Shown here one piece after another: positions 1 through 13,545 of a stretch of DNA of 64,000 nt. Below the pieces are notes generated by a model. It was not told the origin of the DNA. It saw only the letters and a program-made list of their open reading frames with translations, and did no database searches. Position 1 is the first letter of the stretch; every line of letters starts with the position of its first letter. Origin of the DNA: an uncultured Pseudomonadales bacterium. GTDB lineage: Bacteria; Patescibacteriota; Microgenomatia; UBA1400; PJMF01. The position numbers were made by a program, and so were the translations under genes. Location: NCBI GenBank assembly GCA_964511345.1, contig CAZEEV010000004.1, positions 19,802 to 83,801 of the forward strand. Reading direction: 5' to 3'.

Positions 1-2297
1 TAAATAATTTTACCTTCTTCATCAGTTGGTCTAGCGCAATCAGCACAGTACAGCTTAGTCAGCGGGTCGTAATAGAAACTATGTTCTTGTAAACTTAAAT
101 CCGTTGCTTCTTCTCCTTCTTTTGGAGGTAAACCAGTTTCAGCACGAATCCAATATTCTTTACGAAATGTACCGGAATAACTGGGTTTAGAGCTCTCCCA
201 GTACAATTCTTGACCTTTGGATTCACAGCTGGCAATGGGGTCAGTATCAGTGTTAGTGGAGGTAATACTAGTTTCATCATCGCCACTACTGACCAAAAGG
301 GTACCTAATCCTGCTTCTGAAGGCATGCCAGTGAGACAGACATTGCCGATTTTAACGTCACTGGGTTTATCTAACCAAATAGTTTCTTGATCTTGCAAAA
401 TATATGCCATGATATCGTGCCAAATGGGTGCTGCGCCAGTGATACCAGAGGCCAAATAGCTCATAGGTTTACTATTGTTATTACCAACCCAAACGATAGT
501 CAAATACTCTGGAGTATAGCCTACGGTCCAGTTATCTTTCAGATCGTTAGTAGTGCCTGTTTTAGCTGAGACGACTTTATTTTTGATGACTAATTCTGAA
601 TTAGTACCAAAGGCATTTTGGCGGGCATTATTATCTTGCAAAATGTGACTAGTCAGATATGCAGGGGCCCTTTCCATCACTCTTTTTGCAACACCATGCG
701 TATCAACTAAATCATTCTCTGTTAAATATAACAGGTCGTTTTTAGCTGACTCTGAATCATATTTTTCTAAAATTTCTCCCTTATAGTTACTAATTTCCAA
801 AATGCCGGTTAAAGGCACTCTGACGCCTTGGTTGGCTAGAACCCCAAAGGCCTCTGCCAATTCAATCATTTTGACCTCGCCTCCGCCCAAAGTTAGGGAC
901 AAACCATAATTGGCAGGGTCAGTCCAGGTGTTAATACCCATGAGTTTGGCTTGATTAATAAAAGTCTCAATACCAATGGTAGCCAGAGCCTTAACAGCAG
1001 GAATGTTAAGAGAGTTACCTAGAGATTGACGAATCGTCACTGGTCCCATGAAAGCACCTGTGTAATTTTTTGGACAATAATCTTTTTGACCGATCACTCT
1101 AAAACAAGTGGGCACATCTAGCAACATTGATCCAGGATTAAGAGTTTTTTGGGCAAAAGCTGTTGCGTACATAATAGGTTTGATAGATGAACCAGGTTGA
1201 CGGAGAGCTAGAGTGACATTGACTTGACCATCTCCTTCATTATCAAAATAGTCTTTTGAGCCAATCATGGCTAAAATTTCTCCGCTATTGGGTTTAGCTA
1301 CTATTGCGGCGCCGTTTCCCACTTTCATGTTGGTTAATTTTTTCACTTCACTTGATAAAGAGGCTTGAGCGGCCTCTTGTAGATCCAAGTCCAGAGTAGT
1401 CTTGACGCGCAAGCCACCGGTTTCAACCATCTTTTCACCATATTTAGTGTAGAGCAGGTCTTTGATATAAAAAACAAAATGAGGAGCTTTGATATCATCT
1501 TTTTTAATAGCGAAGTTAAGTACTTCGTTGCCTGCAGTTTCTGCTTCTGCTGTAGTAATGTATTTATCTTCTACCATGCGTCTTAACACTTCTTTTTGGC
1601 GGTTCTTACCTTTTTCTGGATTAGATCCAAATGGTGAATAAACAGTAGGAGCTTGAGGCAGACCAGCCAAAAGACTGGCTTCTGCCAAACTTAAATCTTT
1701 GGCCGACTTATTAAAGTATTTATTGGCGGCTGCTTCGACGCCCACTGCAGTGCCACCATAAGAAATATAATTGAGATACATTTCCAAAATTTCTTTTTTA
1801 CTATAAAGAACTTCTGTCATGACGGCTAAGACCGCTTCTTTGATTTTTCTTTGAAAAGTTTTCTCTTTGGTGAGTAAGGCATTTTTGACTAATTGCTGAG
1901 TGATGGTGGAGCCACCCTGCAGACTGCCACTTTTGAAGTTTTTCAAACCAGCACGTACTAAACCACTTAAATCTAAACCGTGATGTGAATAAAATTTTTT
2001 ATCTTCTATAGCGACCGTTGCTTGTAAAACATGGGCAGGTAAATCGTCTATATTGATAGGAATGCGATTTTCGTTACCATAAATCTCATAAAGAAGAGTG
2101 CCATTGCGATCGAAAATTTGGGTGCTGACTGGAAAATTTTCGTTAGCAGTTAAATTATTAGGAGAAGGAAGCTGCTTGTATAAATAGATCAAAATAGCTA
2201 CAAAAATGAATAAGCTTATCCACAGAATAAACTGATAAGAACGTTTATTTTTAGTTCTCTTATTTCTTTTTTTTTCGAATAAAAGAAAGGGATTCAT
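1..2297 (-). CDS. Class A penicillin-binding protein (PBP1A-type transglycosylase/transpeptidase), C-terminus runs off the window start
   Basis: Minus-strand reading frame from the ATG at 2297 stays open to position 1. The ORF track omits it because no stop lies inside the window. Translation begins MNPFLLFEKKRNKR, followed by a TM helix, GT51 motifs (EDKKFYSHHG, QGGSTITQQLVKN) and transpeptidase motifs (SGSSIKP, KTGTTN). It is a paralogue of the PBP at 7622..10066. Confidence 0.8.
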   Translation of the reverse strand, partial: MNPFLLFEKKRNKRTKNKRSYQFILWISLFIFVAILIYLYKQLPSPNNLTANENFPVSTQIFDRNGTLLYEIYGNENRIPINIDDLPAHVLQATVAIEDKKFYSHHGLDLSGLVRAGLKNFKSGSLQGGSTITQQLVKNALLTKEKTFQRKIKEAVLAVMTEVLYSKKEILEMYLNYISYGGTAVGVEAAANKYFNKSAKDLSLAEASLLAGLPQAPTVYSPFGSNPEKGKNRQKEVLRRMVEDKYITTAEAETAGNEVLNFAIKKDDIKAPHFVFYIKDLLYTKYGEKMVETGGLRVKTTLDLDLQEAAQASLSSEVKKLTNMKVGNGAAIVAKPNSGEILAMIGSKDYFDNEGDGQVNVTLALRQPGSSIKPIMYATAFAQKTLNPGSMLLDVPTCFRVIGQKDYCPKNYTGAFMGPVTIRQSLGNSLNIPAVKALATIGIETFINQAKLMGINTWTDPANYGLSLTLGGGEVKMIELAEAFGVLANQGVRVPLTGILEISNYKGEILEKYDSESAKNDLLYLTENDLVDTHGVAKRVMERAPAYLTSHILQDNNARQNAFGTNSELVIKNKVVSAKTGTTNDLKDNWTVGYTPEYLTIVWVGNNNSKPMSYLASGITGAAPIWHDIMAYILQDQETIWLDKPSDVKIGNVCLTGMPSEAGLGTLLVSSGDDETSITSTNTDTDPIASCESKGQELYWESSKPSYSGTFRKEYWIRAETGLPPKEGEEATDLSLQEHSFYYDPLTKLYCADCARPTDEEGKII

Positions 2298-5386: not shown

Positions 5387-7576
5387 ATGACGCAAAAAGT
5401 CACTAGCAATCAGTTGCCTAAAAAGAAAATGAAATTTGTTGATCGTAAACTTTCTAAAGGTTTGGGGGAAGCTGTGGCTAAGCGTACTATTTTACGTACT
5501 AAAGAGAATGGTGAATTAGAAACTTGGGCTGATGTAGCTCGTCGCGTAGCTTTGGGTAACGCTGCTTTATTGCCAGAGAAATTCAAAAAAGATCGCAAGG
5601 GCGAATATGAATTATTGCGTAAGCATATTGCTAATGCTTCGCTTTTAATGAGTGGTCGCCACTTGCAACATGGTGATGAGAGTCAACCAGAGCGCAACAT
5701 GGAAGTTTTTACCAATTGTAGCACTGCTTCCTCTTCATTCTTGCTTTTTTATTTGCTTTTAAATGGTTCTGGCGTCGGTCGTGCTTATGATGACGCTTTG
5801 ATGGTGGTTGATTGGGATTACATGCCCATTGTTCGTTGCGTCTTAAGTGATGAGCACGCTGACTTTGTGTGGGGTGATGATGAAAGTACCCGTGAAGCTC
5901 ACCATAAATATGAAAATGCCCATTGGTTTGAAATTCCTGATACGAGAGAAGGTTGGGCTCAAGCGGTCGAAAAAATCGAAGAGATGGCTTACGAACGCAA
6001 ATTTAAAAATGACACTCTAATCTTAGATTTTACCAAAGTGAGAGCAAAAGGTTCGCCGATTGGTGGTATGCAAGGACGCCCAGCTTCTGGCCCACGTCCT
6101 TTAATTAAAGCCATTCAAAAAGTAGCAACAATCAAAGGTTCTGGCATGAAACCTTGGAAACAAGCTCTTTATGTCGATCATTATTTATCTGAATGTGTTT
6201 TAGTCGGTGGCGCTCGTCGTGCGGCTCGTATTGCCGTTAAAACTTGGACTGATCCAGATATTTTTGATTTTATCAGTATTAAAAAAGGTGGCTTTTTATG
6301 GTCAGCTAACAACAGTGTGGCAGTGGATGAGAAGTTTTGGAAACAACGTAGTTTGCATTCGATGAAGGTTTTAGATGCTGTGATGCGCGCTTCTTACTTT
6401 GATAAAACTGGTGAACCTGGTTTTGTGAATCAGCATAAATTGGTGCAAAACGACGATGGTTTTGATGGCTATTTAGATGGTGCTTATGCACGCAGTAAGA
6501 AGTTTGCTCCCATGAAGAAAACAGTCAAAATGCTAGCCGAAGTGGCGAGACATGCTGGAGCTAAATATTACACTCAAATCCCCAATCCCTGTGGTGAAAT
6601 TACTCTTAATATGTTAGGTGGTTATTGCGTGATTGCTGACGTGGTGCCTTATCATGCCCCAGATGTTGAAGCAGCTGAAGAAGCTTTTCGTGTGGCTACT
6701 CGGGCGCTGATGAGAGTCAATACTTATATGGACAGTTTATATTCTCGTGAAGTGAAGAGAACCAATCGTATTGGCGTTGGCATGACTGGGATTCACGAAT
6801 ATGCTTGGAATGCCTTTGGTTTGGCTTTTAGAGACTTAATTGATGAAGAAAAAGCTAAGGATTTCTGGATGACGATTGCTAGATTTAAACGAGCTGTTCA
6901 GGAAGAATCTATTAGTTATGCTAAGAAAATTGGGGCGAACGTTCCTCATACTAATACTACTATTAAACCAGCTGGTACAACTTCTAAGCTTTTCAGTCTT
7001 TCTGAAGGAGCTCATTTACCAGCCATGCGCGAATATATTCGTTGGGTGCAATTTAGTAGCGATGATCCATTAGTTAAAAAATATCAAAAATTAGGCTATC
7101 CAAGTAAAGAACTAAAAAGCTATCAGGGCACTACGGTAATTGGTTTTCCTACTCAGCCAGAAATTTGTAGTTTAGGGATGAATAGTAAATTGGTGACGGC
7201 CAGTGAGGCTACACCAGAAGAACAATATAAATGGTTGATGTTAATCGAAAAATACTGGATTGTAGGTGTTAATGAACAGGGCAAACCTTTAGCTGAAGAC
7301 AAAGGTAATCAAGTTTCTTACACTCTCAAATATGATCCAGAAAAGGTATCTTATCGTAAGTTTTCTAGTATGATTCGAAAATATCAGCCTTTAATTAAAA
7401 CTTGCAGTGTGATGCCAAAAATTGATGTCACAGCCTATGAGTATCAACCTGAAGAGGCTGTCACTATTGGGCAATTTATGCAAGTGATTAATGAAATTAG
7501 TGACGAAGACAACGAATTATTAGAAGATATTAACTTAGAACATTTGAAGTGCGATAGTGGTGCTTGTCCGATCTAA
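5387..7576 (+). CDS. nrdJ: Class II (adenosylcobalamin-dependent) ribonucleotide reductase
   Basis: 729-aa protein with the RNR active-site motif NPCGEI, a glycyl-radical-free architecture and a C-terminal Cys pair. Immediately downstream of nrdR. Confidence 0.75.
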   Translation: MTQKVTSNQLPKKKMKFVDRKLSKGLGEAVAKRTILRTKENGELETWADVARRVALGNAALLPEKFKKDRKGEYELLRKHIANASLLMSGRHLQHGDESQPERNMEVFTNCSTASSSFLLFYLLLNGSGVGRAYDDALMVVDWDYMPIVRCVLSDEHADFVWGDDESTREAHHKYENAHWFEIPDTREGWAQAVEKIEEMAYERKFKNDTLILDFTKVRAKGSPIGGMQGRPASGPRPLIKAIQKVATIKGSGMKPWKQALYVDHYLSECVLVGGARRAARIAVKTWTDPDIFDFISIKKGGFLWSANNSVAVDEKFWKQRSLHSMKVLDAVMRASYFDKTGEPGFVNQHKLVQNDDGFDGYLDGAYARSKKFAPMKKTVKMLAEVARHAGAKYYTQIPNPCGEITLNMLGGYCVIADVVPYHAPDVEAAEEAFRVATRALMRVNTYMDSLYSREVKRTNRIGVGMTGIHEYAWNAFGLAFRDLIDEEKAKDFWMTIARFKRAVQEESISYAKKIGANVPHTNTTIKPAGTTSKLFSLSEGAHLPAMREYIRWVQFSSDDPLVKKYQKLGYPSKELKSYQGTTVIGFPTQPEICSLGMNSKLVTASEATPEEQYKWLMLIEKYWIVGVNEQGKPLAEDKGNQVSYTLKYDPEKVSYRKFSSMIRKYQPLIKTCSVMPKIDVTAYEYQPEEAVTIGQFMQVINEISDEDNELLEDINLEHLKCDSGACPI

Positions 7577-7621
7577 TTTGACTACTTGTGAATGATTTTT
7601 TCATGCTAAAATATCGCCATT

Positions 7622-10066
7622 GTGGCTACTAAGAAAAAATTAAAAAAAACCAAAAAAAATAAAATAAAACGAGAAAAAAAAGTTTTAGTAGCACAGAATT
7701 CGGTTAAGTTAATTAAGCGTGGTCGCCCTAAGTTACCATTCCATATCAAGCTTAAAAGAACAGTCACAAAATATTTTTTCAACTTAAATAAAAAAATAGA
7801 TAAATCAATAAAAAAATTGATTTATCAATATATTTCTATTTTAAAAGCTCTTAGAATTAAAAAAGGCCGTGGGCGTAAAAAATTGCCTTTTTACATTAAA
7901 TGGCAAAGATTTTTTCTTAATCTCAAAGAACAATTTGGTAAAAAGAGAAAAAAAATTTTTGAAAATTTGCGTCTTTTCAAACTAAGGTTTTTAAAGATTT
8001 TACATTTGAACAAAAAAGTTGGCCGACCTAAAAAGAAACCAATTTTTTACTCCTATTTAACTTCGATTTTTTTAACAATTTTATTTTTAGCTTTTTCTTA
8101 TTTGACTTATGATGTGGCAATTAGAGATTTACCTTCACCAACAGATTTATCTAATAAGGCACAGAGTCTAACTACTAGGATTTTAGATAGAAATGGTAAT
8201 TTGCTTTACCGTATATATGAAGATGAAAACCGTACTCTAATTGCTTTACCCAATGTTTCGCAATATGCCAAAGATGCCACTATTGCTATTGAAGATCAAA
8301 ATTTTTACAAACACATTGGCTTTTCATTTAAGGGCATTTTTAGGGCGATTTTGAAAAATTTCTCAGGAGATACTGTACAGGGTGGTTCTACAATTACTCA
8401 ACAATTGGTTAAAAACCGTTTGCTTAGTAAGGAAAAAACCTATCGTCGTAAAGTTCGTGAATTGATGTTATCTCTCATTGCAGAGCGGATTTACAGCAAA
8501 GAACAAATCTTGGAAATGTATCTTAATACAGTACCTTATGGTGGTTCGACTTATGGCATAGAAGAGGCTTCGTGGCGTTATTTTAATAAATCAGCTCGAG
8601 ATTTAAGTTTGGCAGAATCAGCACTTTTAGCTGGTTTACCACAGGCTCCATCAACTTACACGCCGTTTGGTTCTAATCCAGAGCTGGCTTATGAACGCCA
8701 AGCCGAAGTACTGCGACGCATGGTGGAGGATGGTTATATTAGTCAATTACAAGCTGATCAGGCTAGACAAGAAAAATTGATTTTTAATCAAGATAGAATT
8801 GATATTCAAGCACCACACTTCGTGATGTACGTACGCAAACTTTTAGCTCTTAAGTATGGGGAAGAAATGTTATCCAAAGGAGGGTTAGAAGTAAGAACTA
8901 CTCTCGATTTATCACTACAAAATCAGGCCCAAGAAATTGTGAGCAGCGAGGTTGGCAAGTTAAAGGTGTTTAAAATTAGTAATGGGGCTGCTTTAGTTGC
9001 TAATCCTAAAACAGGTGAGATTTTAGCCATGGTCGGTGGAGCCGACTATTATGATTTTCTTCATGATGGACAAGTCAATGTGACAATTAGACCGCGTCAG
9101 CCAGGATCATCTATTAAACCATTGACTTATGCTACGGCTTTTGAGCGAGGTAAAACTGCTGCTTCCATCGTTGATGACTCACCGGTAGTTTATCAAATTC
9201 CTGGTAGCAAGCCCTATGCCCCAAAGAATTATGACGGTCGTTTTCATGGCAGAGTGACCCTGCGTGAAGCCTTAGCTTCTTCTTATAATGTTCCAGCGGT
9301 TAAATTATTGGCTGAAATAGGAGTAAATAATTTAATTGATAAAGCTGAATCTTTTGGTATTAGTACCTGGCAAGATAGAAATCGTTTTGGCTTATCTTTG
9401 ACTTTAGGTGCTGGTGAGGTACTAATGACAGATTTAGTAACTGCTTATAGCACCTTTGCTAATCTTGGCTATCCAGTAACTTTAAATCCATTTTTAGAGA
9501 TTAGTAATCAAAAAGGTGAGCGACTTTATCGTAATGATTGTGCCTTGGATAATGACAATTGTTATGAAGACTTAAAACTCAGTCCTAAGGCAGCTTATCT
9601 AATTACAGATATTTTGTCTGATAATAAAGCCAGAACACCAGCCTTTGGTGCCTTTAGCGTACTTAATATTCCCAACCAACAAGTGGCAGTTAAAACCGGA
9701 ACCACTAATAACATGAAGGATAACTGGACGATTGGTTATACCACCAATCGTTTGGTAGCGACTTGGGTGGGTAATAATGACAATACACCAATGAGTTATG
9801 TGGCCTCAGGTATAACTGGAGCTTCGCCGATTTGGAATAAAATTATGCTTTTGCTTTTGGATGATCAAAATCCACATCGTTTTGCTGTTCCTGAAAACAT
9901 GATTAAAGTTAAAATTTGTACTGTTACTGGTACTTTGCCTTGTGCTAAATGCCCTCGAGTTGCGGAGGAAATTTTTGTCAAAGGTACAGAGCCACAAAAT
10001 TTTTGTAATGATGAATCTTTTGCTGATTTAGCGGTTGAAAATCAAGGAAACCAAAAACCCCAATAG
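7622..10066 (+). CDS. Class A penicillin-binding protein (PBP1A-type) with a ~135-aa lysine-rich cytoplasmic N-terminal extension containing AT-hook-like repeats
   Basis: GT51 motifs (EDQNFYKHIG, QGGSTITQQLVKN) and transpeptidase motifs (SGSSIKP, SYN, KTGTTN). The N-terminal tail carries KRGRPKLPFHIK, KGRGRKKLPFYIK and KVGRPKKKPIFY before the TM helix. GTG start at 7622. Confidence 0.8.
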   Translation: MATKKKLKKTKKNKIKREKKVLVAQNSVKLIKRGRPKLPFHIKLKRTVTKYFFNLNKKIDKSIKKLIYQYISILKALRIKKGRGRKKLPFYIKWQRFFLNLKEQFGKKRKKIFENLRLFKLRFLKILHLNKKVGRPKKKPIFYSYLTSIFLTILFLAFSYLTYDVAIRDLPSPTDLSNKAQSLTTRILDRNGNLLYRIYEDENRTLIALPNVSQYAKDATIAIEDQNFYKHIGFSFKGIFRAILKNFSGDTVQGGSTITQQLVKNRLLSKEKTYRRKVRELMLSLIAERIYSKEQILEMYLNTVPYGGSTYGIEEASWRYFNKSARDLSLAESALLAGLPQAPSTYTPFGSNPELAYERQAEVLRRMVEDGYISQLQADQARQEKLIFNQDRIDIQAPHFVMYVRKLLALKYGEEMLSKGGLEVRTTLDLSLQNQAQEIVSSEVGKLKVFKISNGAALVANPKTGEILAMVGGADYYDFLHDGQVNVTIRPRQPGSSIKPLTYATAFERGKTAASIVDDSPVVYQIPGSKPYAPKNYDGRFHGRVTLREALASSYNVPAVKLLAEIGVNNLIDKAESFGISTWQDRNRFGLSLTLGAGEVLMTDLVTAYSTFANLGYPVTLNPFLEISNQKGERLYRNDCALDNDNCYEDLKLSPKAAYLITDILSDNKARTPAFGAFSVLNIPNQQVAVKTGTTNNMKDNWTIGYTTNRLVATWVGNNDNTPMSYVASGITGASPIWNKIMLLLLDDQNPHRFAVPENMIKVKICTVTGTLPCAKCPRVAEEIFVKGTEPQNFCNDESFADLAVENQGNQKPQ

Positions 10067-10237
10067 GAGAGTAATTAGTAGAAGTAATGGTGCCACCCAT
10101 CTTTGACTTAGTTCTTCTTTTTCAATTTTTCTTTGACGTTTTTTGGCTTGTTTAGCTAAATAGTTTTGTTCGATTTTATCTGTTTTTTTAGCTACATCTT
10201 TAATCAGATTAGGATCAGGTTGATAAAATTTATTCAT
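10028..10237 (-). CDS. Small C-terminally TM-anchored protein (69 aa), hypothetical
   Basis: ORF immediately downstream of cmk on the same strand, overlapping its stop by 8 nt. Basic N-terminus and a C-terminal hydrophobic helix. It overlaps the 3' end of the convergent PBP gene by 39 nt. Confidence 0.3.
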   Translation of the reverse strand: MNKFYQPDPNLIKDVAKKTDKIEQNYLAKQAKKRQRKIEKEELSQRWVAPLLLLITLLLGFLVSLIFNR

Positions 10238-11730: not shown

Positions 11731-13545
11731 TTATAGCTCTACCTCATAGACCACTGAGCCACTCAGAGCATAGATTTTTTGATTATCTGTGTTAAAAGCA
11801 ATGCTACTTACACCAGCCAACTCGTTACTTTTAATTTCATTGATGAGTTGGCCATCTTTAGTAATAACAACTAGTCTTTTGTTTTGTTTTTCTAGGATTG
11901 CCAGAGAATTGTTATTTTCACCAGTGCTTAGAGAAACGGTGCTAGTAAGTAAATTACTAAGGCCAGCGATTTGGAAATCAGTCGCGTAACCTTTACTAAA
12001 TTTCAATAGTCTGCCAGATTTATCTCCCAACCATAAATCGCCATCAACTACCAAATCACTAATGTTTTCAAAATTAATACCTTGCTTGTCTACTAACCAA
12101 CCGATTGGTTCACTAAGTTGATCAGCATTGTAATAGTACCGATAAATATTTCTTTTTTCCTTATTAACCAGATATAAATATGGTCCAAAGCTACTGAAAT
12201 GCTCAGCATTTTTATCTGATTCTCCTGCCACTTTAATTTCTTTAAATTCTTTTTCGTTTTTTTGCAAATCCAGCATTTGTATACCGTTGCTCAAGATAAA
12301 TAATTTGCCGTCGCTAACGGTAAAATCTCTAATTTGCTGATTACTATTTAAACTTAATTTTTCTTGACTACGATCCGCATTAATCTTCAAAATTTCCTGA
12401 CCACTATTTTCTAAAATAAAAATTTGCTGATTTGCAACTACAATTTTATTGCCCAAAAAGTTTTCCAAATTAAAAGCGATAGATAAACGATCTAAAGAAT
12501 TTTCTCCAGATATTTGGTTGATAGTGGTTTGCAATTTTTGGATTTCTTGATCAATTAATTGCAGACTATCTCGATTGTTTTTTTCTTTTTTCAAAGCTTC
12601 TAATGCCTGTAAACTTTTTTGCGCTTTTTCTCTGGCAGTTAAAGGCTGTTTCAAAACTAGCTGGTCAATATTTTCTATTTCAGAATTGATTGCAATAATT
12701 TGGTTTTGAATGTTGTGAATGATTTGTTGTTTTTGTCTGTTCAATAGAGTGAATGTGCCAAAAACTCCTCCAAGCAATACTAGAAAAATTATTAAACTAA
12801 TTAATAGCTTTTTCTTATTTTGGTTTTTTAGCCATATATAGATTTTTTTTAAAAATAAATGAATTTTTTTGCCAAAAAAATAAATTTTTGCAATTACTTT
12901 TTTAAGATAAGACAAGACCTGAGTGATCAATGGCACGAGTTTGTTGATTTCAAATTTTGTTTTTGCAGGGTTTTGACTGATTTTTTCTTGATAATTAAGA
13001 ATAGCTAAACTAGTGCCGAGATTTTTTATTTCTTCTTGCATCAAACTCAATTCACTAACAATTTTTTCCAAACTATTTTCTTTGGCATTCAAACTTGCTG
13101 AAGCAAGAATTTTCTCGGCTAAAACTGCACCAGCTTGATTGACTAAAATAATCTGATCACCTGTGCGAAATGGACCAAGAATGATTTTTACCTCAGCTCT
13201 ACTAGAGAGGATTGGCCTGACTTGTCCATTTCTTTGCAAGATTACTTGTCCAGAATAAGTGACAAAAACAATTTGTTCTTGGTGAAGCCAGCTAGCAGCA
13301 AGCTCTATTTCCAAGTCTTTTTGACGAGTAAAGACCAATAAATCTAAAATTTTTTGGTGGAGTTGTTCTGGATTATTGATTTGCCAGCTGGTAAATTCGC
13401 TGGCTAAATCTTTACAAAAACTGGTAGCATTTTGACCTTTGAGAGAATAAGCGACGACCAATTGTTTGTTTTGACTTGCAATCACTTCGGAGCAGAAATC
13501 TAAACGAGGATGAGCTAAGATTGATACAAATTGAGCCTCTTTCAC
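11731..13545 (-). CDS. Large hypothetical membrane protein (604 aa): cytoplasmic N-domain, single TM, extracytoplasmic coiled-coil and beta-rich C-terminal region
   Basis: Long ORF with an internal hydrophobic helix (LISLIIFLVLLGGVFGTFTLL), a heptad-rich region, and a C-terminal region with repeated beta-strand-like segments. Confidence 0.5.
   Translation of the reverse strand: MKEAQFVSILAHPRLDFCSEVIASQNKQLVVAYSLKGQNATSFCKDLASEFTSWQINNPEQLHQKILDLLVFTRQKDLEIELAASWLHQEQIVFVTYSGQVILQRNGQVRPILSSRAEVKIILGPFRTGDQIILVNQAGAVLAEKILASASLNAKENSLEKIVSELSLMQEEIKNLGTSLAILNYQEKISQNPAKTKFEINKLVPLITQVLSYLKKVIAKIYFFGKKIHLFLKKIYIWLKNQNKKKLLISLIIFLVLLGGVFGTFTLLNRQKQQIIHNIQNQIIAINSEIENIDQLVLKQPLTAREKAQKSLQALEALKKEKNNRDSLQLIDQEIQKLQTTINQISGENSLDRLSIAFNLENFLGNKIVVANQQIFILENSGQEILKINADRSQEKLSLNSNQQIRDFTVSDGKLFILSNGIQMLDLQKNEKEFKEIKVAGESDKNAEHFSSFGPYLYLVNKEKRNIYRYYYNADQLSEPIGWLVDKQGINFENISDLVVDGDLWLGDKSGRLLKFSKGYATDFQIAGLSNLLTSTVSLSTGENNNSLAILEKQNKRLVVITKDGQLINEIKSNELAGVSSIAFNTDNQKIYALSGSVVYEVEL

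Follow-up and report, generated by a model that had tools for sequence, protein, structure and literature searches.

A class A PBP encoded in the window (the whole stretch of 64,000 nucleotides that was analysed) carries, ahead of its membrane anchor, a conserved, strongly basic cytoplasmic tail with three AT-hook-like motifs, which suggests a direct link between the chromosome and cell wall synthesis. The tail may be a clade-specific AT-hook array that would tether the synthase to AT-rich DNA, a tentative assignment from sequence that we place not far short of an even chance. The features on which this rests are the following.

7604..7612, plus strand: candidate extended -10-like element, TGCTAAAAT, 9 nt upstream of the start codon
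7622..10066, plus strand: whole gene of the class A (bifunctional) PBP, 814 aa, GTG start
7622..7714, plus strand: basic N-terminal segment, aa 1-31 (MATKKKLKKTKKNKIKREKK...), with a low-confidence helix at aa 3-21 (AF2)
7715..7732, plus strand: hook 1, K-R-G-R-P-K, aa 32-37, a canonical RGRP core in a flexible linker
7739..7849, plus strand: helix A, aa 40-76, a 37-residue cationic amphipathic helix, net charge +9
7859..7882, plus strand: hook 2, K-K-G-R-G-R-K-K, aa 80-87, a GRGR core with Lys in place of Pro
7889..7999, plus strand: helix B, aa 90-126, a 37-residue cationic helix, net charge +10 (AF2)
8012..8038, plus strand: hook 3, K-K-V-G-R-P-K-K-K, aa 131-139, a GRP core directly before the transmembrane (TM) helix
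8042..8122, plus strand: single transmembrane anchor, aa 141-167, AF2 helix, mean Eisenberg hydrophobicity 0.64
8195..8722, plus strand: GT51 glycosyltransferase domain, aa 192-367 (Pfam PF00912 Transgly, E 1.5e-62)
8984..9847, plus strand: transpeptidase domain, aa 455-742 (Pfam PF00905, E 1.1e-23)

The anchor lies N-terminal to the GT domain, as expected for a class A PBP. Across 77 orthologues, the GT51 residues E224, D225, GGSTITQQ (aa 254-261), R276, K277 and E280 are invariant, as are S496-x-x-K499 (SxxK), S554-x-N556 (SxN) and K691-T-G-T694 (KTG) of the transpeptidase. As predicted from these domains, the protein is a working, catalytically intact bifunctional peptidoglycan synthase of the PBP1A family; it passes the NCBIfam model TIGR02074 (PBP_1a_fam) narrowly, with 510.3 bits against a cut-off of 508.75, and its paralogue in the window scores 516. 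A 100% identical protein is present in the public collection (P0002), and orthologues with 56-92% identity were retrieved by means of the full-length query, since the word index is blind to the low-complexity tail: used alone, the tail of the window returned a single 163-aa fragment and that of one orthologue (P0085) a single weak match (E 0.5), and neither search recovered its source protein. The gene belongs to a conserved neighbourhood composed of NrdR, class II RNR, the PBP, a 69-aa TM protein, Cmk, a LiaF-like TM protein and SmpB, in a genome of about 36% GC. The paralogue (1..2297, minus strand) is 49% identical to this PBP in an alignment that begins at the TM helix, ahead of which it has only about 22 residues.

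The tail comprises about 140 aa before the TM helix and ends at about 8041. Its composition (143 aa with 40 K, 12 R, 3 E and 1 D) gives a net charge of +48, and its order is a basic N-terminus, hook 1, a 37-aa helix, hook 2, a second 37-aa helix, hook 3 and the TM helix. The three motifs are KRGRPKLPFHIK (aa 32-43), KGRGRKKLPFYIK (aa 81-93) and KVGRPKKKPIFY (aa 132-143), and their G-R cores recur exactly every 50 aa, at residues 34, 84 and 134. By hhalign, the pair of hook 1 and helix A is homologous to the pair of hook 2 and helix B along 50 columns (probability 98%, E 2.5e-13), and the tail is thus two tandem homologous 50-residue units of hook and helix, followed by a third hook that adjoins the TM helix. 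In the AF2 models the hook regions are coil with pLDDT below 50 (aa 19-34, 82-85 and 133-136) flanked by confident helices (for helix A, pLDDT rises from about 82 in the model of the whole protein to 94-98 in that of the tail alone), which would fit motifs that become ordered only upon binding. Much of this had been anticipated: the preliminary description of the locus had noted a very basic tail of about 135 residues with three repeated motifs, as well as a paralogue with about 20 residues ahead of its TM helix, and the AF2 position of the anchor, the charge, the motifs and the count in the paralogue all agree with it. Its end point for the tail, 8030, does fall just past the core of hook 3, but the tail in fact runs on to about 8041. 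The two 37-residue helices and the internal 50-aa duplication had no place in that description. A weak terminator-like hairpin (7871-7888) lies within the coding region and was taken as chance, and the tail contains no twin-Arg S/T-R-R-x-F-L-K pattern, so that a Tat signal was rejected.

Three hooks, at spacings of 49-50 and 47-53 aa, are found in 69 of 112 full-length orthologues (Patescibacteria/"Pacebacteria"); the tail is shared by orthologous PBPs, a point that the preliminary description had left to be checked. Another 23 of the 112 have no hook at all, though their tails are equally long and basic, and part of the role of the tail therefore cannot depend on the hooks. The conservation alignments were drawn from hook-bearing orthologues and the invariance that they display is partly circular: in 77 sequences the columns G84, R85, G134, R135 and P136 are invariant, and at least 90% of the sequences retain R33, G34, R35, P36 and R83. 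For hook 1 (76 orthologues) the counts are 74/76 for R33, 72/76 for G34 and 76/76 for both R35 and P36, and Lys never occurs at the Arg positions. Hook 2 has G84 and R85 in 77/77, R83 as R in 73 and as K in 3, and a Pro in only 13/77, which is replaced by Lys in the lineage of the window. Hook 3 has G134, R135 and P136 in 77/77 and a Lys at K138 in 73/77. The core Arg is thus never Lys in a K-rich tail, save for the 3/77 at R83, whereas the other basic columns of the tail are dominated by K (R/(K+R) 0-0.49). Columns that flank the hooks are at least 80% basic, and in the window these flanks read IKRGRPKL, KKGRGRKK and KKVGRPKKK. No other feature of the tail is as well conserved in these alignments as the Gly-Arg(-Pro) cores and the distances between them.

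Such motifs are rarely expected from composition, as in 500,000 shuffles of the tail the probability of at least two GRP was 7.4e-5 and that of at least three hook-like motifs was 1.8e-5. The other long ORFs of the 64-kb window contain no hook-like motif in any frame. Among the 80 loci listed by a genome scan with the full-length alignment, all of them more distant PBP1A (identity of 62% or less) that served as a negative control, none has hooks in its tail, and some of these tails are just as basic. Hook number does not follow genomic AT content as judged by an amino-acid proxy, and this counts against a DNA tether.

Pfam AT_hook (PF02178) does not match the window's own tail even at E <= 10, whereas it matches 14 of 31 orthologue tails at E <= 1 (best E 2.2e-6). 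The P0085 tail obtains 22.8 bits, in three stretches, against a gathering score of 17.4; a human HMGA1 sequence, used as a control, reached only 16.2 bits, which marks the model as weak. Compared with the RGRP consensus, hook 1 of the window is complete (RGRP), hook 3 has the core only (VGRP) and hook 2 is without Pro (GRGRK); in many orthologues all three hooks are canonical, for example KRGRGRPRK and KKRGRPKK. Run against 1.84 billion representatives, a profile of the tail matched its own family and, beyond that, multi-AT-hook proteins only. Among these matches there was no bacterial protein in which the domain context differs, an absence that is weakly supported; full-length PBPs were missing too, probably as one representative at 50% identity covers them. 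The AT-hook match proposed in the preliminary description is thus sustained at the level of the family, by the orthologue tails, the tail profile and the retention of Arg. It is less secure for the window's own tail, where the lack of a Pfam match, the change of Pro to Lys in hook 2 and that of the first Arg to Val in hook 3 also count against a DNA tether.

RGRP is the AT-hook consensus, and HMGA1 has three hooks that bind the AATT minor groove (PMC8476142). RGRP or RGR inserts into the AT-rich minor groove, a change of RGR to AGA abolishes binding by Lsr2 and H-NS, and the Lsr2 motif is SGRGR, with no proline (PMC8476142). In bacteria, CarD of Myxococcus xanthus has four RGRP hooks in an HMGA-like, intrinsically unfolded basic region (PMC4374960). 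Like HMGA1 and HMGA2, the PBP has three hooks with Gly-Arg-Pro cores flanked by Lys/Arg, in stretches predicted to lack structure. Its hooks differ in belonging to the cytoplasmic tail of an enzyme anchored in a bacterial membrane and in being parted by fixed-length 37-residue helices, whereas HMGA linkers are disordered; moreover, the PBP has no acidic C-terminal tail and in the window hooks 2 and 3 are degenerate (GRGRK and VGRP). Membership of the HMGA family of small soluble proteins was ruled out for an 814-aa membrane enzyme with 4 acidic residues in the 143 of its tail, since only the hooks are common to both. With CarD the PBP has in common a bacterial array of RGRP hooks in a basic region, but CarD, a transcription factor that binds RNA polymerase and CarG, is soluble and has its hooks after an acidic segment, while the PBP is a membrane-anchored peptidoglycan synthase without such a segment. 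Hook 2 (KGRGRKK) is of the GRGR form without proline, as in Lsr2; in the Lsr2/H-NS/Bv3F group (SGRGR / QGR), however, the motif is a loop in the folded DNA-binding domain of a nucleoid-associated protein rather than part of a membrane-protein linker.

We infer that the tail may bind DNA or another polyanion. In the mechanism that we propose, a cytoplasmic module of about 140 residues would have been gained ahead of the membrane anchor in one lineage of Patescibacteria, and the Arg-Gly-Arg of its three hooks would enter the AT-rich minor groove in the manner of HMGA, CarD and Lsr2-type motifs. The synthase would then be held at the interface of membrane and nucleoid or, equivalently, DNA would be held at sites of wall synthesis. 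The helices could be fixed-length spacers, or could lie on the inner leaflet so that the tail would bridge membrane and DNA, and with such a tether, wall growth or septation in these small cells could be tied to where the chromosome lies. The fullest version, a PBP hooked to the chromosome whose hooks hold AT-rich DNA at the membrane while its amphipathic helices rest on the inner leaflet, would constitute a bridge from wall to membrane to nucleoid, and we regard it as doubtful. In Bacillus subtilis, Noc has both a DNA-binding element and an amphipathic helix that binds the membrane; it thereby recruits DNA to the membrane and affects where division takes place. The analogy is functional only: Noc is a peripheral protein of the ParB family, uses a helix-turn-helix at specific sites, is no enzyme and has no AT hooks. 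A literature search found no report of a class A PBP and AT hooks on one polypeptide, and no experiment or paper that bears on DNA binding by the tail. A juxtamembrane stretch rich in Gly/Arg/Lys/Pro also occurs in E. coli PBP1B, where it is not known to have a DNA role, and this counts against the tether.

Since the hooks adjoin the membrane and strongly cationic amphipathic helices, binding to anionic lipids would suit them equally well. The main rival to the DNA tether is accordingly a membrane-surface module, in which the amphipathic helices would lie on the inner leaflet, the Gly-Arg-Pro motifs would be basic turns with Arg gripping lipid phosphates (phosphatidylglycerol, cardiolipin and the pyrophosphate of lipid II are candidates) and the likeness to AT hooks would be convergent. 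It could serve to fix topology, to sense anionic or curved membranes or to concentrate the enzyme in lipid domains. The two amphipathic helices and the 50-aa duplication keep membrane binding a serious rival, though an unlikely one in our estimation. Helix A, with its charge of +9, has a muH of 0.46 (shuffle p = 0.001), and this amphipathicity is kept across orthologues (median z 2.5, with z >2 in 71% of sequences); helix B is more weakly amphipathic (muH 0.38, p = 0.066, median z 1.4 across orthologues), which speaks against the module. The combination of aromatic and basic residues in helix A (LPFHIK, LPFYIKWQRFF) is typical of interfacial helices, and the position of hook 3 next to the TM helix, the long basic tails retained in hookless orthologues and the failure of the window's own tail to match Pfam AT_hook point the same way. 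Simple electrostatic binding to lipids would accept Lys, yet the core Arg is not replaced by it, and a turn would not call for anything as specific as an invariant G-R-P with a fixed spacing of 50 aa. The 80 other PBP1A tails listed, some of them equally basic, likewise do without the hook motif.

A quite improbable alternative is a protein-interaction scaffold, with the hooks as short linear binding motifs in a tail that would bind FtsA, FtsZ, MreB or a lineage-specific partner, or would dimerise the synthase via its helices. Two confidently predicted helices with a constant length of 37 residues could form coiled coils or helical bundles, and there is a precedent in mycobacterial PonA1, a class A PBP in which the cytoplasmic tail at the N-terminus is functional in its own right and is regulated by phosphorylation (PMC4483258). 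The PonA1 tail acts via this phosphorylation and, unlike ours, lacks an array of hooks and 50-aa repeats and is not extremely basic. Further, the conserved neighbourhood from NrdR to SmpB contains no evident partner, specific protein interfaces seldom have a charge of +48 with hardly any acidic residues, and the tail-only AF2 model has a pTM of 0.45 and no Foldseek match in the PDB.

We give a poor chance to RNA binding, in which the array of hooks, with its widespread basic residues, would contact rRNA, ribosomes or mRNA and might, for instance, link the synthase to translation or to membrane insertion. Eukaryotic 'extended' AT hooks bind RNA, the basic residues of the tail reach far past the GRP cores and the sequence evidence is identical to that for DNA. 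Nothing specifically indicates RNA, however. Rfam detected no family and no structured RNA at the locus (7300..8300), and the orthologues carry canonical hooks (KRGRGRPRK, KKRGRPKK).

The start at 7622 is of the leaderless type, with no Shine-Dalgarno sequence. The element TGCTAAAAT and its spacing are identical in the window and six orthologous loci (7/7), while the flanking intergenic sequence differs, and the start codon across the seven is GTG or ATG (ATG at the equivalent place in L005). A consensus two-hexamer promoter scan found none upstream of 7622, and the call of a -10-like element therefore rests on this conservation and on reading of the sequence. In comparison with the six loci, dN/dS is 0.16-0.27 for the tail and 0.03-0.09 for the catalytic domains; aa 1-31 are the least constrained part of the tail (0.25-0.78), and their start and sequence are kept in close orthologues. 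Given the dN/dS of the tail and the conserved leaderless-type start, these comparisons indicate that the tail is translated and under purifying selection. We therefore attach next to no probability to an annotation artefact, with the true start near the TM helix and the 'tail' an untranslated leader: although the GTG start without a Shine-Dalgarno sequence, an in-frame TTG at Leu129 and the lack of a two-hexamer promoter in the scan would favour it, it is opposed by 143 codons of 36%-GC DNA without a stop, by the dN/dS of the tail and length differences among orthologues that remain in frame, by the conservation of the start (ATG in L005) and of the -10-like element, and by motifs that are still conserved in protein sequences with an overall identity as low as about 56%. 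The downstream start that the preliminary description had considered is thus not supported, and an internal TTG start at Leu129 was rejected on the same evidence. An antisense ORF (7606..7782) was also rejected as a real gene, being merely the reverse-strand shadow of the conserved coding region.

Few bacterial enzymes have been studied as closely as class A PBPs, and the AT hook, a textbook motif of eukaryotic chromatin, has only a handful of bacterial examples (CarD, Lsr2/H-NS-like loops). If the tail binds DNA, a single protein would link the nucleoid to wall synthesis in a large and hard-to-culture group of bacteria, the Patescibacteria, in which the coordination of growth, division and chromosome handling is almost wholly obscure. 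Were the bridge between wall, membrane and nucleoid true, wall growth or septation could be coupled to chromosome position or segregation in these ultra-small cells, in a direct form of the envelope attachment envisaged by the replicon model. If the tail binds the membrane instead, it would still be a conserved, repeat-built regulatory module of a PBP, relevant to how the envelope of Patescibacteria is modelled.

The class A PBP encoded at 7622..10066 is an apparently intact enzyme that carries a translated, conserved and clade-specific cytoplasmic module, made of three Arg-specific hooks in flexible linkers and two fixed-length cationic helices between them.

Layout of the class A PBP (aa numbering of the protein; AF2, AlphaFold2 prediction)
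7622..10066, plus strand: class A PBP ORF, 814 aa, GTG start
aa 3-21: weak helix (AF2)
aa 22-39: coil with hook 1 (AF2, pLDDT <50)
aa 40-76: helix A (AF2, pLDDT ~82)
aa 77-89: coil with hook 2 (AF2)
aa 90-126: helix B (AF2, pLDDT ~84)
aa 127-140: coil with hook 3 (AF2)
aa 141-167: TM helix (AF2)
aa 192-367: transglycosylase domain (Pfam, E 1.5e-62)
aa 455-742: transpeptidase domain (Pfam, E 1.1e-23)

The three repeats reported in the preliminary description lie at aa 32-43, 81-93 and 132-143, with Gly-Arg cores at aa 34, 84 and 134 and thus at an exact 50-residue spacing. Its estimate of ~135 residues before the membrane comes close to the prediction, since AF2 places the sole TM helix at aa 141-167 and leaves ~140 residues in the cytoplasm. 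The extreme basicity it described is borne out by 40 Lys, 12 Arg and 4 acidic residues in aa 1-143 (net charge +48). The paralogue in the window (1..2297, minus strand) indeed has a short tail, with ~22 residues before its TM helix (about 20 had been given).

The AF2 model from the full-length alignment has a mean pLDDT of 79.7; predicted alone, the tail forms the same two 37-residue helices at pLDDT 94-98, with a pTM of only 0.45, and Foldseek found no similar structure in the PDB for the tail model. In a profile-profile comparison the unit of hook 1 and helix A aligns as a homologue with that of hook 2 and helix B along the full 50 columns (hhalign probability 98%, E 2.5e-13), and the third unit matches in the hook alone (11 columns). 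These profiles argue that a "hook + helix" unit was duplicated in tandem to form the tail, which has one more hook beside the membrane. Chance origin of the motifs is excluded, with P(>=2 GRP) = 7.4e-5 and P(>=3 hook-like motifs) = 1.8e-5 in 500,000 tail shuffles, and the other long open frames of the 64-kb window contain no hook-like motif. The coding sequence of hook 2 also holds a weak terminator-like hairpin (7871-7888, plus strand; 5-bp stem then a T run), probably by chance (1 site found vs 0.3 expected).

The AT-hook likeness stated in the preliminary description holds for the family, in which the Pfam AT_hook model (PF02178; 13 positions, gathering score 17.4 bits) matches 14 of 31 orthologous tails at E <= 1 (best 2.2e-6), but not for the window's own tail, which gave no match even at E <= 10. 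The tail of one orthologue, P0085, scored 22.8 bits over three stretches. As a control, human HMGA1 reached only 16.2 bits, below the gathering score; the model is therefore weak and a miss means little. Many orthologues have textbook hooks (KRGRGRPRK, KKRGRPKK, RRRRGRPKKK). In the window's lineage hook 1 is the canonical KRGRPK, hook 3 (KVGRPKKK) keeps the GRP core and hook 2 (KGRGRKK) has Lys in place of Pro. Among 1.84 billion representative proteins a tail profile matched 22, which were N-terminal pieces of PBPs from this family and long proteins with 3 to 17 KRGRGRPK-type hooks; none was a bacterial protein with a different domain. By sequence, the module is classed at family level as AT-hook-type motifs, and the window's tail reads as a slightly degenerate member below the formal Pfam threshold.

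The full-length search returned one public protein 100% identical to the PBP and >100 orthologues at 56-92% identity, named, where names are given, as Patescibacteria or "Candidatus Pacebacteria" PBP1A. Orthologous PBPs do share the tail, as the preliminary description had proposed to check: it is long (76-335 aa, hook-less proteins included) in all 112 full-length top matches, over which we counted three hooks in 69/112 proteins, two in 6/112, one in 14/112 and none in 23/112. Mean K+R is 0.28-0.34 and mean D+E ~0.03 in each hook class, and three-hook proteins space their hooks by 49-50 aa, then 47-53 aa. The 23 hook-less tails (such as P0067, P0072, P0074, P0076, P0078, P0079, P0089, P0095 and P0105-P0108) are 99-335 aa long and just as basic (mean K+R 0.28), so that a long polycationic tail either predates the hooks or is more widespread than they are.

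In 31 diverse aligned tails the spacers drop to 16-27% identity with the window and the sole invariant columns are RGRP, GR and GRP; in the 77-sequence full-length alignment G84, R85, G134, R135 and P136 are invariant and R33, G34, R35, P36 and R83 at least 90% conserved, an invariance that is partly circular because the alignment was made from chosen hook-bearing sequences. Less circular is the comparison of Arg with Lys. The hook cores hold Arg in 76/76 (R35), 77/77 (R85), 77/77 (R135) and 74/76 (R33) sequences, with 0 Lys each, and R83 is Arg in 73 and Lys in 3, which points to selection on arginine itself and not on charge. Other basic tail columns are Lys-dominated (R/(K+R) 0-0.49), except R46 (7757-7759; Arg in 54, Lys in 9) and R96 (7907-7909; Arg in 64/77, 0 Lys), each 11 residues past hook 1 or hook 2 in the context KLPFxIKxxR. 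As the sole Arg-preferring columns outside the cores, these two suggest a functional unit longer than the classic hook. Tails of 80 more distant PBP1A loci (<=62% identity, among the matches listed), from Microgenomates, Parcubacteria, Saccharibacteria and Chloroflexota, contain 0 hooks, and some are just as basic; this argues that the hook array is an innovation of one lineage. Several MAG records with Patescibacteria-like PBP1A genes (L010, L011, L015, L016, L019, L025, L082 and others) are titled 'uncultured Gammaproteobacteria', 'Pseudomonadales', 'Bdellovibrionales' or 'Nanoarchaeia', and such titles look unreliable for taxonomy.

The function that we propose for the tail draws on sequence analogy. 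Tentatively, and with a confidence just short of even, we favour that the hooks would bind the minor groove of AT-rich DNA and that the DNA-bound tail would place the synthase at the membrane-nucleoid interface; a further contact of helix A with the inner leaflet would make the tail a bridge between membrane and DNA. Minor-groove binding of AT-rich DNA is established for RGRP and RGR motifs, and RGR-to-AGA substitution abolishes it (PMC8476142). The low-GC setting noted earlier stands (window ~36% GC), so AT-rich targets would be abundant. The number of hooks did not follow AT content as gauged by an amino-acid proxy, a result that is neutral for DNA binding.

The main rival is anionic-lipid binding, with the amphipathic cationic helices on lipid and the GRP segments as basic turns. 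Amphipathicity is strong in helix A (muH 0.46, shuffle p = 0.001; net charge +9) and conserved across orthologues (median z 2.5); helix B shows less of it (muH 0.38, p = 0.066; orthologue median z 1.4). Lipid binding would account for such helices, for the tail's position beside the membrane and for equally basic tails in the 23 hook-less orthologues, but less well for the strict demand for Arg rather than Lys and for an invariant Gly-Arg-Pro, and we consider it rather unlikely. A protein scaffold, for which the PonA1 tail is a precedent (PMC4483258), seems improbable, and RNA binding by the tail slightly more so. Finally, a mis-called start, with the true one downstream, is scarcely credible given a tail dN/dS of 0.16-0.27 and a start conserved in 7/7 loci (the window and six orthologous loci) with TGCTAAAAT exactly 9 nt upstream (window 7604-7624).

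In the same codon alignment (window as reference, against the six loci) dN/dS is 0.03-0.07 for the TG domain and 0.04-0.09 for the remaining protein; by this measure the tail clearly evolves as protein, under weaker constraint than the catalytic domains. The start codon after TGCTAAAAT is GTG (ATG in locus L005), and none of the 7 loci examined has a Shine-Dalgarno sequence upstream of it. We take TGCTAAAAT to be a putative extended -10 element whose mRNA would be leaderless or nearly so; the start regions suggest that this genome makes many such mRNAs, a GTG-started one among them. A two-hexamer consensus scan found no promoter upstream of the PBP, and Rfam had no match at the locus. A -10-like TAnAAT also lies 12-17 nt before the starts at 2357 (plus), 11693 (minus), 18442 (plus), 52608 (plus) and 59616 (plus), without Shine-Dalgarno sequences. 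Three A8 runs (7642-7649, 7652-7659, 7674-7681) lie in the opening 60 nt of the PBP reading frame and encode its Lys-rich N-terminus; A runs this long are slippage-prone. The public fragment P0001 (tail 80% identical) terminates in an apparently frameshifted TM segment, perhaps through an error in sequencing or else genuine variation.

In its catalytic body the PBP is a standard member of the PBP1A family and narrowly passes NCBIfam TIGR02074 (510.3 bits, cut-off 508.75). Catalytic residues of both domains are invariant across 77 aligned orthologues, and the enzyme thus looks intact. Its alignment with the paralogue (49% identity) runs from the TM helix to the end. Six cysteines (C640, C647, C766, C774, C777, C795; aa 640-795, window 9536-10009), located extracytoplasmically around and after the transpeptidase domain, are also invariant in the 77 orthologues and could be disulfide-bonded or bind a metal. 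The paralogue's C-terminal extension is longer, different from that of the PBP, and includes a CADCARP segment.

Six orthologous loci share the gene neighbourhood NrdR, class II ribonucleotide reductase, PBP, 69-aa TM protein, Cmk, LiaF-like TM protein and SmpB.

Conserved ORFs near the PBP gene
10028-10237, minus strand: 69-aa ORF, one TM helix; same place in 6/6 related loci
11731-13545, minus strand: 604-aa ORF, central TM segment; downstream of SmpB, conserved in related loci

The 69-aa ORF converges on the PBP gene, with 39 nt of overlap at the latter's 3' end, and had no Pfam match; nor had syntenic counterparts of the 604-aa ORF lying wholly within their locus.

The hooks resemble those of HMGA, but the PBP, a membrane enzyme whose spacers are helical and which lacks an acidic tail, is not an HMGA family member. 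Similar hooks are present in bacterial CarD, with four of RGRP type (PMC4374960), and the proline-less hook 2 (KGRGRKK) recalls the SGRGR motif with which Lsr2 enters the minor groove (PMC8476142). Full-text searches covering few subscription journals, on AT hooks in PBPs, in peptidoglycan and transmembrane contexts and in the Candidate Phyla Radiation, and on PBP tails of Patescibacteria, found no description of this architecture. The novelty lies in joining a familiar motif array to a familiar enzyme, in a conserved, lineage-specific combination. DNA binding by the tail is a hypothesis that is cheap to test, and canonical AT hooks on a PBP would surprise a specialist.
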